A DNA stretch of 64,000 nt, taken from NCBI RefSeq assembly GCF_053078305.1, contig NZ_CP166879.1; one strand, 5' to 3'. Under the pieces are notes generated by a model. It was not told the origin of the DNA, did not search any database, and saw nothing but the letters and a program-made list of their open reading frames with translations. The position numbers and the translations under genes are program-made. Below are positions 1-15,961 of this stretch, piece by piece. Positions within the stretch are counted from its first letter, which is position 1. Each line of letters begins with the position of its first letter.

Positions 1-3000
1 ATCCCTCTTCTGTCCGCCTGCTGATTCAGCTTGAGCGTAACGGGCACTGGGTGACGGAGAAGGATATCACCATTAACGGCAAGACCACCTCGCAGTACCT
101 GACGTCTGTGATTCTGAATAATCTCCCTGAGCGCCCCTTTAACATCCGGATGGTCAGGGAGACGGCGGACAGCACCACGGACCAGCTGCAGAACAGAACG
201 CTGTGGTCGTCATACACCGAAATCATCGATGTGAAACAGTGCTACCCGAACACGGCCATTGTGGGGCTGCAGGTGGATGCGGAGCAGTTTGGTGGCCAGC
301 AGCTGACGGTGAACTACCATATCCGTGGTCGCATCATTCAGGTGCCGTCAAACTATGACCCGGAAAAACGCACCTACAGCGGTATCTGGGACGGGAGTCT
401 GAAACCGGCATACAGCAATAACCCGGCCTGGTGCCTGTGGGACATGCTGACCCACCCGCGCTACGGCATGGGAAAACGCCTGGGGGCCGCGGATGTGGAC
501 AAGTGGGCACTGTATGCCATCGGGCAGTACTGCGACCAGACGGTCCCGGATGGTTTCGGGGGAACAGAGCCGCGGATGACTTTCAATGCGTACCTGTCAC
601 AGCAGCGTAAGGTGTGGGATGTCCTGGGGGATTTCTGCTCGGCGATGCGCTGTATGCCGGTATGGAACGGCCAGACGCTGACGTTCGTTCAGGACCGTCC
701 GTCGGATGTGGTGTGGCCGTACACCAACAGCGATGTGGTGGTGGATGATAACGGCGTGGGGTTCCGCTACAGCTTCAGTGCCCTGAAGGACCGGCACACG
801 GCGGTGGAGGTGAATTACACCGACCCGCAGAACGGCTGGCAGACCTCCACGGAACTGGTGGAAGACCCGGACGCCATCCTGCGCTACGGACGCAACCTGC
901 TGAAGATGGATGCGTTTGGCTGTACCAGCCGCGGTCAGGCCCACCGTGCCGGACTGTGGGTGATAAAGACCGAACTGCTGGAAACGCAGACGGTGGATTT
1001 CACGCTCGGGTCACAGGGGCTGCGGCATACGCCCGGTGACATCATTGAAATCTGTGATAACGACTATGCCGGGACCCTGACCGGCGGACGCATCCTGTCC
1101 ATTGATGCCGCCAGCCGCACACTGACGCTGGACCGTGAGGTGACACTGCCGGAAGCAGGGACATCGACGGTGAACCTGATTAACGGCAGCGGTAAGCCGG
1201 TGCGCGTGGACATCACTGCACACCCCGCGCCGGACCGGATACAGGTCAGCGCCCTGCCGGATGGCGTGGAGACATACGGTGTGTGGGGACTCTCCCTGCC
1301 GTCACTGCGTCGTCGCCTGTTCCGCTGTGTTTCCATCCGGGAAAACACGGACGGCACTTTTGCCATCACGGCAGTGCAGCACGTACCGGAAAAAGAAGCC
1401 ATTGTGGATAACGGGGCTCGCTTTGAGCCGCTGTCCGGTTCACTGAACAGCGTTATCCCGCCGGCAGTGCAGCACCTCACGGTGGAGGTGAGTGCCTCAG
1501 ACGGCCAGTATCTGGCGCTGGCGAAATGGGACACGCCGCGGGTGGTGAAGGGCGTGCGCTTCAGTCTGCGCCTGACCAGCGGAAACGGTGAAAACAGCCG
1601 CCTGGTGACCACCGCCATCACTGCCGACACGGAGCACCGTTTCAGTGGCCTGCCTCTGGGGGAATACACCCTGACGGTCAGGGCGATAAACAGCTACGGC
1701 CAGCAGGGCGAACCTGCCACCACCGCGTTCCGGATTAATGCGCCTGCAGCACCGGCCAGCATTGAGCTGACGCCGGGGTATTATCAGATAACAGCAGTAC
1801 CGGTGCTGGCGGTGTATGACCCGACGGTACAGTTTGAGTTCTGGTTCTCGGAGGCAAAAATCGCAGACACATCTCAGGTGGAAACCTCTGCCCGTTATCT
1901 GGGGACAGGCAGCCAGTGGAGCGTCTCCGGCCCGCACATCAAGCCGGGGAAGGATTTCTGGTTTTATGTGCGCAGCGTTAACCTGGTGGGGAAATCTGCG
2001 TTTGTGGAAGCCAGTGGCCGGGCGAGCAATGATGCAGAAGGGTATCTGGGGCTGTTTCGGGAAAAGATAGGAAAACTGCATCTGGCACAGGGGATGTGGG
2101 AGCTGATTGATAACAGCCAGCTTGACAATGAGATGGCGGAGATGAAGACCACCATCACCGAAACCCGCAATGAAATCACGCAGACGGTCAGTAAAACCCT
2201 GGAAGACCAGAGCGCCACCATACAGCAGATACAGCGGGTGCAGACAGACACAAATAACGACCTGGCTGCGCTGTACATGCTGAAGGTGCAGAAAACAAAA
2301 AACGGCATTCCGTATGTTGCCGGTATAGGTGCGGGGATTGAGGATGCTGATGGCCAGCCCCTGAGCAATATTCTGCTGCAGGCGGACCGTATCGCGATGA
2401 TTAACCCGGAGAACGGCAACACCACGCCGCTGTTTGTGGCGCAGGGGAATCAGCTGTTCATGAACGATGTGTTCCTGAAGCGGTTGTTTGCAGTGAGCAT
2501 CACCTCGTCCGGCAATCCCCCGACGTTTTCCCTGACGCCGGACGGGAAACTGACGGCCCGCAATGCTGATATCAGCGGACATATCAGTGCGAACTCGGGC
2601 ACGCTGAATAATGTCGTGATAGCGGAGAACTGTACGATAAATGGCACGCTGAAAGCGGAGAACATTATTGGTGATCTTGTGAAATGTGCAGGGGTGGCTT
2701 TTCCGGTGGATGGTAGTTACCTTGCGAACGGTACACGAACGCTGACGGTATATGACGATCACAGCTTTGACCGGCAGATTATAATCCCGCCGATAATCTA
2801 TGTCGGGTCAAAACAGGAATCCCGTACCAGTAATGACATCTGGACAGAGTGCTTCCTGCATGTTGATCAGAACGGACGCCGGATTTATTCAGGCAGGTCA
2901 GTGACAGAGCCGGGAATTTTCAGCGGGATCATCGATATGCCAGCCGGAGGTGGTCATATCACCCTGAGTTTTACCGTAAGTTCACGACGTCAGAACGGGA

Positions 3001-3077: not shown

Positions 3078-3275
3078 ACATCGCGCCCCGGGATTGCCGG
3101 AAGGAGACAAAAACCGTACAGTATGCGCGGGTGCCTTTGGCTGATGGCCGGAGGGAACACCTGAAGGCCGGAAAGACGAAGGCCCCGGACAAACATTCAT
3201 GTTTAACCCGAGGCCTGACTTTCGATCTTCAGCAAATTGAAGGTTAGCGCCTCTCCGTAAAAGGAGCAAGCGTTT

Positions 3276-3416
3276 ATGTCGCAAAAACCGTTAAAAACCA
3301 CCGTGATTTGTACCACGGTAGTGCTCATTATCTGGATCACCCACACTTCACTGTGCGAGTTCCGGTTCCGGATAGCGGGCGCGGAGATTGCGGCGTTCTT
3401 ACAGTGTAAGCAGTAA
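3276..3416 (+). CDS. Hok/Gef-family type I toxin-like small membrane protein (46 aa: MSQKPLKTTVICTTVVLIIWITHTSLCEFRFRIAGAEIAAFLQCKQ)
   Basis: Read directly; below the ORF-track size cutoff. AAGGAG RBS 9 nt upstream of the ATG; basic N-terminus, one TM segment, C-terminal S-L-C-E-x-R/H ... A-A-F-L-x-C-K pattern as in HokA/HokB/Gef. Confidence 0.6.
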   Translation: MSQKPLKTTVICTTVVLIIWITHTSLCEFRFRIAGAEIAAFLQCKQ

Positions 3417-7689: not shown

Positions 7690-9150
7690 ATGGGAAATAA
7701 TTTGTTATCAGCAAAAGCGACACTCCCTGTTTATGATCGTTATAACCTGGCCCCAAGAATTGTTCATTTAGGCTTTGGTGCATTTCACCGTGCGCATCAG
7801 GGCGTGTATGCCGATATTCTTGCTACAGAACATTTCAGTGACTGGGGATATTATGAGGTCAACTTAATCGGCGGCGAACAGCAAATTGCCGATTTACAAC
7901 AGCAAGATAATCTTTATACCGTTGCGGAAATGTCGGCCGATGCGTGGACGGCTCGCGTCGTTGGCGTCGTTAAAAAAGCCTTGCACGTACAGATAGATGG
8001 CTTAGAAACCGTGTTGGCTGCGATGTGTGAACCGCAAATCGCGATTGTCTCTCTGACAATCACCGAAAAAGGGTATTTCCACTCTCCGGCGACCGGACAG
8101 TTAATGCTCGATCACCCGATGGTCGTTGCCGATGTACAAAATCCCCACCAGCCGAAAACTGCAACAGGGGTGATAGTCGAGGCGCTGGCTCGCCGTAAAG
8201 CGGCAGGACTTCCCGCATTTACCGTCATGTCATGTGACAACATGCCAGAAAACGGTCATGTTATGCGTGACGTTGTCACTTCCTACGCGCAAGCTGTTGA
8301 TGTAAAATTGGCACAATGGATCGAAGAAAACGTGACTTTCCCATCAACAATGGTGGACCGTATTGTGCCCGCAGTGACAGAGGATACGCTGGCGAAAATC
8401 GAACAACTTACCGGTGTGCGCGATCCTGCGGGCGTTGCCTGTGAACCTTTCCGCCAGTGGGTTATCGAAGATAACTTTGTTGCCGGACGTCCGGAATGGG
8501 AAAAAGCGGGAGCCGAACTGGTTAGTGATGTGCTGCCTTATGAAGAGATGAAGTTGCGCATGCTCAACGGCAGTCATTCATTCCTGGCGTATTTGGGTTA
8601 TCTTGCTGGATATCAGCACATTAATGACTGTATGGAAGATGAACATTATCGTTATGCGGCGTATGGCTTGATGTTGCAGGAACAAGCGCCGACGCTGAAA
8701 GTGCAGGGCGTTGATTTGCAAGATTACGCTAACCGATTAATTGAACGCTATAGCAACCCGGCGTTACGTCATCGAACCTGGCAGATTGCGATGGATGGCA
8801 GCCAGAAATTGCCACAGCGGATGTTGGATTCTGTTCGCTGGCATCTGGCGCATGACAGCAAGTTCGATCTGCTGGCGCTGGGCGTCGCGGGTTGGATGCG
8901 TTATGTCGGTGGTGTTGATGAACAGGGAAATCCGATAGAAATCAGTGACCCACTGTTACCTGTTATTCAGAAGGCTGTACAAAGTAGTGCCGAAGGGAAA
9001 GCGCGCGTCCAGTCATTGCTGGCGATTAAGGCAATCTTTGGTGATGATTTGCCAGACAATTGCTTGTTTACTGCAAAAGTGACGGAAGCGTACTTGTCTT
9101 TATTAGCGCATGGCGCGAAAGCGACCGTGGCGAAATATTCCGTGAAGTAA
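7690..9150 (+). CDS. ydfI: Mannitol dehydrogenase-family oxidoreductase
   Basis: 486-aa ORF, long-chain mannitol/mannonate dehydrogenase family. Confidence 0.9.
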
Positions 9151-9178
9151 AAAAAGCAATGCCGCCATCGGCGGCATT
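9150..9178 (-). terminator. Rho-independent terminator of ydfZ (hairpin AATGCCGCC/GGCGGCATT plus T-tract on minus strand)
   Basis: Inverted repeat followed by run of T on the minus strand. Confidence 0.55.
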
Positions 9179-9185
9179 CACACGC

Positions 9186-9389
9186 TTAGTTCATGCCGAG
9201 ACGAATCAGGTCCAGTGGTGCCAGTTTCTCTTCACAACCTTCAACAACTACGGTTTTTCCGCGGCGGATTTGCTCAGCGGTCAGACCTTCAGTATCAATC
9301 GACAGGATCTTGCCAGTGTGACCGGTGCCGCTAACCATAACACGGCTGCCAGTGGTGATTGCGTTACGGTTACGATCGTAGGTCGTCAT
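9186..9389 (-). CDS. ydfZ: Small 67-aa protein YdfZ (putative selenium-binding protein)
   Basis: 67-aa ORF in the ydfI-rspR interval. Confidence 0.85.
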
Positions 9390-9470
9390 AGGTGTTTTCT
9401 CCTTTCTGATTTACAGTCGAAGCCCACGTAACGGGCGCAATATAAATACTCCTGTCGAGTGAAATATTTT

Positions 9471-9484
9471 TTGTTTTTGATCAA
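9471..9484. promoter_or_regulatory. FNR-like site TTGTT-N4-ATCAA upstream of ydfZ
   Basis: One mismatch to TTGAT-N4-ATCAA; centred about 88 bp upstream of the ydfZ start. Confidence 0.3.
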
Positions 9485-9565
9485 GCTCACATCTTTTTTG
9501 ATGCATGCATGAGCCATAAGGCGGGGGAAAAGACTCTCACCCCGGATGGGATGAGAGGAAATGAA

Positions 9566-10252
9566 TTACTCTTCGCTAAACCAGTCGCTATTTTCCTGGC
9601 GGATCTGGCGCACGGATTCGCTGATTTCCTGCAAATGTTGCGTCATTGCACGTTCTACCGCATCGCCATCACGTTTTTGCAGGGCAGAGAAAATATCAAG
9701 ATGCTGGCGTAACAGCATTTCTGGTGGTGAAACGTGGTCGAAACTCATATAGCGCACGCGATCAACGGTCGCTTTCAGGTTCTCAATGGTATCCCACGCC
9801 AGTTGACAGTCGGCAATCTGCGTCAGGAGTTGATGGAAGTTGTCATCAAGTTCAAAAAAATCATCCAGTTGCTTGCGCTCAATGGCAATGCGTTGCTGGT
9901 GAAGATTTTGTTCCAGTTGGTAGCACTGGCTTTCGGTAATCATGCTCGCCGCCCGACGCGCCACCGCGCACTCAATGGCCTGACGGATAAAACTGCCGTT
10001 GCGCACCTGGGCCATGGAAATTTTGTTGACGTAGCTGCCACGCTGTGGACGAATTTGAATCAGGCCGTTTTCCGCCAGTTTAATAAAGGCTTCACGAACC
10101 GGCTGGCGAGACACATTGAAACGAACAGAAACTTCTTTTTCCGACAACGGTGTGCCTGGGGCAATCAGGCAATGGACAATGTCGCGACGAAGGATACGAT
10201 AAATCTGCTGATTGACAGGCTGTGTGGGATTAAGTTGCGTTTCGACGGTCAT
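9566..10252 (-). CDS. rspR: GntR/FadR-family transcriptional regulator
   Basis: 228-aa ORF; N-terminal GntR wHTH, FadR-type C-domain (ydfH). Confidence 0.9.
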
Positions 10253-10340
10253 TCGTTCTTGCTTGTGAGTGAGTTAACTGCATGAGTCTACCACTTTTTT
10301 ATGACAAGCAATAACCCGGCAGTTACGCCGGGTATAAAAA

Positions 10341-15656: not shown

Positions 15657-15679
15657 CATTCATTGAGAAAACTGATGCT

Positions 15680-15790
15680 ACTGTGTCAACGATCCGTTAT
15701 CAGTGCAGGAAAATGCCTGTTAGCGTAAAAGCAAAACACAAATCTATCCATGCAAGCATTCACCGCCGGTTTACTGGCGGTTTTTTTTTT
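15680..15790 (+). ncRNA. mgrR: Putative PhoP-dependent Hfq sRNA MgrR (about 100 nt), ending at hairpin CCGCCGG/CTGGCGG plus T10
   Basis: Strong intrinsic terminator at 15763..15790 with no coding ORF, PhoP-box upstream; 5' end approximate. Confidence 0.5.
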
Positions 15791-15807
15791 CGCCGTCATA
15801 AAAATCA

Positions 15808-15838
15808 GGCCCCTTGTACACAACTGTAACAAGGGGCC
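15808..15838 (-). terminator. Terminator hairpin of mgtS (GGCCCCTTGT ... ACAAGGGGCC, T-rich on minus strand)
   Basis: 10-bp inverted repeat just 3' of the mgtS stop on the minus strand. Confidence 0.5.
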
Positions 15839-15865
15839 GGTTAGGTGAGGGATTATCTCCGTTCA

Positions 15866-15961
15866 TTAGTCATCCCATTTGTGGCTGAAATACGCGGCCA
15901 GAAAACCAGAAAATAAAATTATTCCCAGTACGGCCATAAAAACATTCATATTACCCAGCAT
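15866..15961 (-). CDS. mgtS: 31-aa inner-membrane small protein MgtS (YneM): MLGNMNVFMAVLGIILFSGFLAAYFSHKWDD
   Basis: Translated by hand from the minus strand; not in the ORF track because of size. Confidence 0.85.
   Translation of the reverse strand: MLGNMNVFMAVLGIILFSGFLAAYFSHKWDD

Follow-up and report, generated by a model that had tools for sequence, protein, structure and literature searches.

The FNR site of the Escherichia coli ydfZ promoter and the CRP site that overlaps it

The motif TTGAT-CAAA-AACAA at 9471..9484 (minus strand) is the already published FNR site of the known E. coli ydfZ promoter and is not a new element. We hold with very high confidence that it is the FNR operator of this promoter, and that the promoter is a simple class II FNR-dependent one. 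This assignment is carried by the position of the motif relative to a mapped transcription start, by published binding and expression data obtained with the identical sequence, and by the recurrence of the same arrangement upstream of ydfZ in other genera. A CRP site overlaps the operator, and its possible contribution to ydfZ control is weighed below. All positions count from the first letter of the window, which is the whole stretch of 64,000 nt analysed here (contig NZ_CP166879.1, assembly GCF_053078305.1).

The ydfZ locus and its promoter

The window derives from an E. coli strain, with 9100..10300 sharing 99.9% identity with its best hits in RefSeq. On the minus strand, ydfZ occupies 9186..9389, with the A of its ATG at 9389, and encodes a protein of 67 aa that matches the Pfam family YdfZ (E=7e-34) and is annotated as a putative selenium delivery protein. 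The gene upstream, rspR (ydfH, 9566..10252), lies on the same strand, so that the upstream region of ydfZ is the 176-bp rspR-ydfZ gap at 9390..9565. A strong intrinsic terminator of rspR at 9524..9557 (minus), consisting of a 10-bp stem (9557..9534) followed by TCTTTTCCCC, stands between rspR and the ydfZ promoter. Read along the ydfZ strand, the stop codon of rspR is followed by this terminator, an A-rich stretch, TGTGAGC, the FNR site (9484..9471), TATTTA, the transcription start, the leader and the ATG. A 43-aa open reading frame that runs across the promoter (9386..9517, minus) is a purely mechanical one and was discarded as unsupported, and an Rfam scan gave no match in the ydfZ region.

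Several further features of the window and the locus were recorded. Elsewhere in the window, Rfam identified the Hfq-binding RNA STnc560 at 15657..15872 (plus strand; 276 bits, full length), which K-12 coordinates place in the mgrR / mgtS (yneM) region, as well as a sok antitoxin RNA at 3129..3287 (plus strand) that barely exceeds the gathering score (63.5 bits), indicating a hok/sok-type toxin-antitoxin locus, probably within prophage DNA. The convergent neighbour of ydfZ is ydfI (b1542; 7690..9150, plus strand). Of three transcriptome studies compared, a single one has ydfI as FNR-'Activated', and no FNR site of its own is noted for it (Myers et al., 2013; Table S8). The FNR effect on ydfI could be indirect or due to read-through. 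The ydfZ gene itself belongs to the ArcA iModulon. The 'ydfZ' that appears in a Salmonella FabR paper denotes the ddg/yfdZ region and has no bearing on the gene discussed here.

On the plus strand, 9471..9484 reads TTGTTTTTGATCAA, the sole exact match to TTGTT-N4-ATCAA in the 64-kb window, and the reading on the ydfZ strand agrees with the FNR consensus TTGAT-N4-ATCAA at nine of ten positions. The initial annotation had reported a half-site pair of this pattern, centred about 88 bp upstream of the ydfZ start codon; a pattern scan of the window recovered it at the same coordinates, and the distance from its centre (9477.5) to the ATG is 88.5 bp. The match itself is without significance on sequence alone, with the exact pattern being expected 0.28 times per window and arising at least once in 22 of 100 shuffles, and with two matches of at least 9/10 to the FNR consensus seen where 3.57 are expected. 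The site is significant because of its position, its conservation and the published experiments. The other 9/10 match in the window, ATGATCGCCATCAA at 57449..57462 (plus strand), falls within a 759-aa open reading frame (56732..59011) and is most likely a chance occurrence.

The 211 bp at 9370..9580 are 100% identical to E. coli K-12 MG1655 (NC_000913.3), so that published K-12 data transfer directly to the window. In a start-site map of K-12, transcription of ydfZ begins at NC_000913.2 1627192, the 5' UTR measures 47 nt, and the upstream 51-mer ends in ...TATATTGCG / ...GAGTATTTATATTGCG (Kim et al., 2012; PMC3415461, supplementary file 2). Mapped onto the window, this start is the G at 9436 (minus), so that the FNR site, with its centre at 9477.5, is located exactly at -41.5. 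The class II assignment of the initial annotation had been made open to refutation by the transcription start, and the mapped position does not conflict with it.

The probable -10 hexamer is TATTTA at 9443..9448 (minus; -12..-7), which follows the FNR site after 22 nt and was chosen by analogy with the class II paradigm. It is a poor hexamer, having A at -7 in place of the usual T. No -35 match was found at the ydfZ promoter, and a scan with the sigma-70 consensus returned no full promoter there, which is consistent with, though uninformative for, an activator-dependent promoter. TATATT at 9439..9444 was considered as an alternative -10 element, but although it is the better hexamer, it predicts a start at ~9432 and an FNR site at ~-45.5, with which the mapped start at 9436 disagrees; moreover, it is absent in Buttiauxella, which keeps TATTTA. 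The 47-nt leader (9390..9436, minus) contains the Shine-Dalgarno sequence AAGGAG at 9399..9404, and a small 5'-terminal hairpin formed by +1..+15 of the leader is not statistically distinctive (fold z = -0.79).

Two other short motifs are present in the gap. TACTCCT at 9447..9453 (plus strand), which overlaps the -10 region (-11..-17), matches the heptamer of NarL/NarP, TACYYMT, perfectly. It stands alone, with ~0.17 such heptamers expected by chance in the gap, and neither Citrobacter nor Buttiauxella shares it. Upstream of the promoter lies the 10-bp palindrome ATGCATGCAT (9501..9510), whose symmetry is lost in other Escherichia species (ATGCAAGCAT); it is probably due to chance.

FNR-dependent activation and its conservation

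Genome-wide studies have placed ydfZ among the targets of FNR. FNR was found bound at ydfZ by ChIP-chip (Grainger et al., 2006), and a later ChIP-seq study, in which ydfZ has a peak, assigned the gene to category 1, directly FNR-activated, and predicted two FNR motifs there, the top one at -41.5 (Myers et al., 2013; PMC3688515). The supplement of the latter study gives PatSer scores of 13.58 for TTGATCAAAAACAA and 13.18 for the overlapping GTGAGCTTGATCAA. It also reports a sigma-70 ChIP signal at ydfZ of 63 under aerobic versus 3597 under anaerobic conditions (a ~57-fold rise) and a +O2/-O2 ratio of 0.0112 for ydfZ mRNA (~89-fold up without oxygen), and lists the gene as 'Activated' in all three transcriptome studies (Myers et al., 2013). 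In addition, FNR gel shifts have used the ydfZ promoter as their positive control, and PydfZ-lacZ, described as 'Activated; Class II promoter', is in standard use as a reporter of class II activation by FNR. Kang 2005 and Mettert 2008 are said, in later papers that cite them, to be among the descriptions of this K-12 promoter (PydfZ).

Published experiments on the identical sequence have thus shown where transcription starts, that FNR binds both in vivo and in vitro, and that expression is anaerobic and depends on FNR. The class II activation by FNR from -41.5 that the initial annotation had claimed for ydfZ is borne out by these data, and so is the dependence on FNR, for which the listing of ydfZ as directly FNR-activated goes together with the anaerobic increase in sigma-70 occupancy and mRNA. 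The features of a class II FNR promoter that can be tested from sequence are all present at ydfZ, and the experimental ones are found in the literature.

In the reading best supported by these data, [4Fe-4S]-FNR dimerises in the absence of oxygen and binds to TTGAT-CAAA-AACAA at -41.5, where the bound protein overlaps the place of the missing -35 element. FNR brings sigma-70 RNA polymerase to a weak -10 element, probably TATTTA, and transcription from 9436 yields the 47-nt leader followed by ydfZ. By the class II paradigm, the activating regions of FNR would contact the alpha and sigma subunits of the polymerase.

A scan for YdfZ, with one genome per species, yielded 17 ydfZ loci, 15 of which carry an FNR-like site (at least 8/10) located 77.5-102.5 nt upstream of the ATG. 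In Escherichia spp. this site is TTGATCAAAAACAA or TTGATCATAAACAA, at 88.5 nt from the ATG, and Citrobacter amalonaticus has TTGATCAAAAACAA at 102.5 nt. The site reads TTGATCGAGATTAA in two species of Franconibacter (79.5 nt), GTGATCGCGATCAA in isolate LSJC7 (78.5 nt), TTGACTTNGCTCAA or TTGATTTAGCTCAA in four Buttiauxella loci (84.5-85.5 nt) and TTGATCTGGGTTAA in Shimwellia (77.5 nt). In six lineages a -10-like hexamer (TATTTA, TAAAAT, CACAAT or TAGAAT) follows 21-22 nt after the FNR-like site, even though the flanking sequences cannot be aligned between genera. Within the alignment of Escherichia and Citrobacter, invariant blocks cover the FNR site and GTATTTATATT-CGCCCGTTACGT, and the TATTTAT block is likewise invariant and recurs with equal spacing in Buttiauxella. 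Within Escherichia, the FNR site varies only in its non-contacted N4 spacer (CAAA to CATA). By shuffling, the chance of an FNR-like site in a window of 75-105 nt amounts to 0.011-0.023 per lineage, and ~5 independent lineages with the site give a joint probability of ~1e-8, which is a rough figure since the distance window was picked after seeing the data. The orthologues lend independent support to the FNR site.

The two loci without any FNR-like site are those of Kluyvera sichuanensis and of the second Buttiauxella gaviniae copy (L012 and L013, 1350..1500). Both encode a second type of YdfZ, starting with MKTY..., and the 150 nt upstream are nearly identical between the two genera. These genes look like a separate paralogue, and the near-identity of their upstream regions hints either that the genes were recently transferred horizontally or that a control region of another kind has been conserved. 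Furthermore, a 265-bp contig (NZ_VLXZ01000251.1; locus L010, coverage 0.79) in the assembly of Alkalicoccobacillus porphyridii codes for residues 1-49 of E. coli YdfZ, at 100% identity, and has both FNR/CRP motifs at distances equal to those in E. coli; this contig is almost certainly an E. coli contamination of the A. porphyridii assembly.

Sites overlapping the FNR operator

A CRP site, TGTGA-gcttga-TCAAA (9/10), is found at 9476..9491 (minus) with its centre at 9483.5, which is 6 bp upstream of the FNR centre and corresponds to -47.5 from the mapped start at 9436. The CRP site and the FNR site have the palindromic core TTGATCAA in common, and the two proteins cannot occupy their overlapping ydfZ sites simultaneously. 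The element could therefore be seen as mainly a CRP operator, with CRP either competing with FNR for TTGATCAA or activating ydfZ, and with expression of the gene depending on the carbon source as a result. We regard this as less likely than not. In its favor, ydfZ is among the predicted targets of CRP in a genomic SELEX study (CRP genomic SELEX, 2011), and CRP binds to the site in vitro, where a Footprint-seq preprint lists ttTTTGAtcaagcTCACAtct, centred at NC_000913.3 1629120, as a 'novel' site with an estimated Kd of 5.2 nM (Footprint-seq preprint, 2026; Table 1). The CRP-like site is moreover conserved in Escherichia and Citrobacter. Against this, the CRP reading adds to control by FNR and does not replace it, leaving all of the evidence for FNR in place. 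The distance of -47.5 is not among the known activating positions of CRP (-41.5, -61.5, -71.5 etc.), no usable -10 element lies in the sequence at the distance required for CRP to act from -41.5 or -61.5, and no in vivo effect of CRP on ydfZ was found in the literature. In the Buttiauxella orthologues, in addition, the FNR site is not accompanied by any convincing CRP site.

Separate CRP sites are present in other genera. In Franconibacter pulveris and F. helveticus (L008 and L009, ~1385..1400) a 10/10 CRP site, TGTGATATTCATCACA, is positioned exactly 29 bp upstream of the FNR-like site, at ~-70.5, and in Shimwellia (L017, ~1387..1402) a near-perfect one, GGTGATATATGTCACA, stands at exactly the same distance and again at ~-70.5; in LSJC7 the site at -40.5 is itself an FNR/CRP hybrid. 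The sites of Franconibacter and Shimwellia, which also speak for an involvement of CRP at ydfZ, suggest a co-regulation by CRP and FNR with an architecture unlike that of E. coli, and CRP input to ydfZ may be widespread but wired differently. CRP is largely inactive in glucose medium. The FNR genomics on ydfZ were done in glucose medium.

From these observations a more specific proposal can be derived, in which TTGATCAA is common to mutually exclusive operators for FNR (-41.5) and CRP (-47.5), cAMP-CRP competes and thereby tunes the anaerobic induction of ydfZ by carbon source, and the CRP input is ancestral but rewired. We consider this rather doubtful as a whole. If it were true, the novelty would lie only in the regulatory effect of the CRP site and in the comparison across genera, the CRP site itself having been published (SELEX, 2011; Footprint-seq, 2026). 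If carbon-source signals do reach the 'FNR-only' reporter via CRP, PydfZ-lacZ assays in glucose-free media would need cautious interpretation.

Because TTGATCAA holds both TTGAT and ATCAA, it also allows for a second operator offset by 6 bp, and an FNR-like motif, GTGAG-CTTG-ATCAA (8/10), indeed overlaps the FNR site at 9477..9490 (minus), again 6 bp upstream and centred at -47.5. It is very improbable that FNR uses this motif and that the one at -41.5 is incidental. The site predicted from the ChIP-chip data is the -47.5 motif, given as a 24-mer (Grainger et al., 2006), its PWM score of 13.18 is near the 13.58 of the -41.5 motif, and the resolution of ChIP is too coarse for sites 6 bp apart. 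No site-directed mutation that separates the two overlapping ydfZ FNR motifs was found in the literature. However, given the mapped start, a centre at -47.5 is shifted by roughly half a helical turn from the phase of class II activation. By our count, the -47.5 motif also decreases to 7/10 in E. albertii, E. whittamii, E. coli SCPM-O-B-8794 and Escherichia sp. E1V33 and is without a counterpart in Buttiauxella, Franconibacter and Shimwellia, whereas all of them retain a site of the -41.5 type, along with its distance to the -10 element. Judged by the mapped start, by helical phase and by conservation, the -47.5 motif is unlikely to be the operative FNR site. That the FNR motif is nothing but a functionless chance match in an AT-rich intergenic region, as the 3.6 matches of 9/10 expected per window and the occurrence of the exact pattern in 22% of shuffles might suggest, can be virtually dismissed in view of the data published for the identical sequence (FNR binding, mapped start, expression dependent on FNR) and of the conservation of site and spacing across six lineages.

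Comparison with known FNR- and CRP-regulated promoters

The assignment of 9471..9484 as the class II FNR operator of ydfZ leads back to the K-12 promoter PydfZ, which is the same locus, 100% identical over 9370..9580, with the same FNR motif, start and leader and no promoter difference. The inference made in the initial annotation from sequence only was accurate to the base pair, and it carries little weight as a discovery, PydfZ being a standard FNR reporter.

Among other class II FNR promoters, those of dmsA, narG, nirB and nrfA (Myers et al., 2013; Table 1, PMC3688515) resemble ydfZ in having one FNR dimer site at -41.5 and no -35 element, as well as in their anaerobic induction with raised sigma-70 occupancy. 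They differ from ydfZ in two respects, since ydfZ is not known to need a co-regulator such as NarL, NarP, IHF or Fis, and since the FNR site of ydfZ is overlapped by a high-affinity CRP site. Overlapping or shared FNR/CRP sites, as at ydfZ, are known from uxaB, ptsH and guaB (Myers et al., 2013; Table 3, PMC3688515). The FNR motif TTGAT-N4-ATCAA and the CRP motif TGTGA-N6-TCACA are related inverted repeats, and at ydfZ both use one TTGATCAA core. Unlike at uxaB, ptsH and guaB, the two centres at ydfZ are offset by 6 bp and not coincident, and ydfZ responds strongly to FNR alone in glucose.
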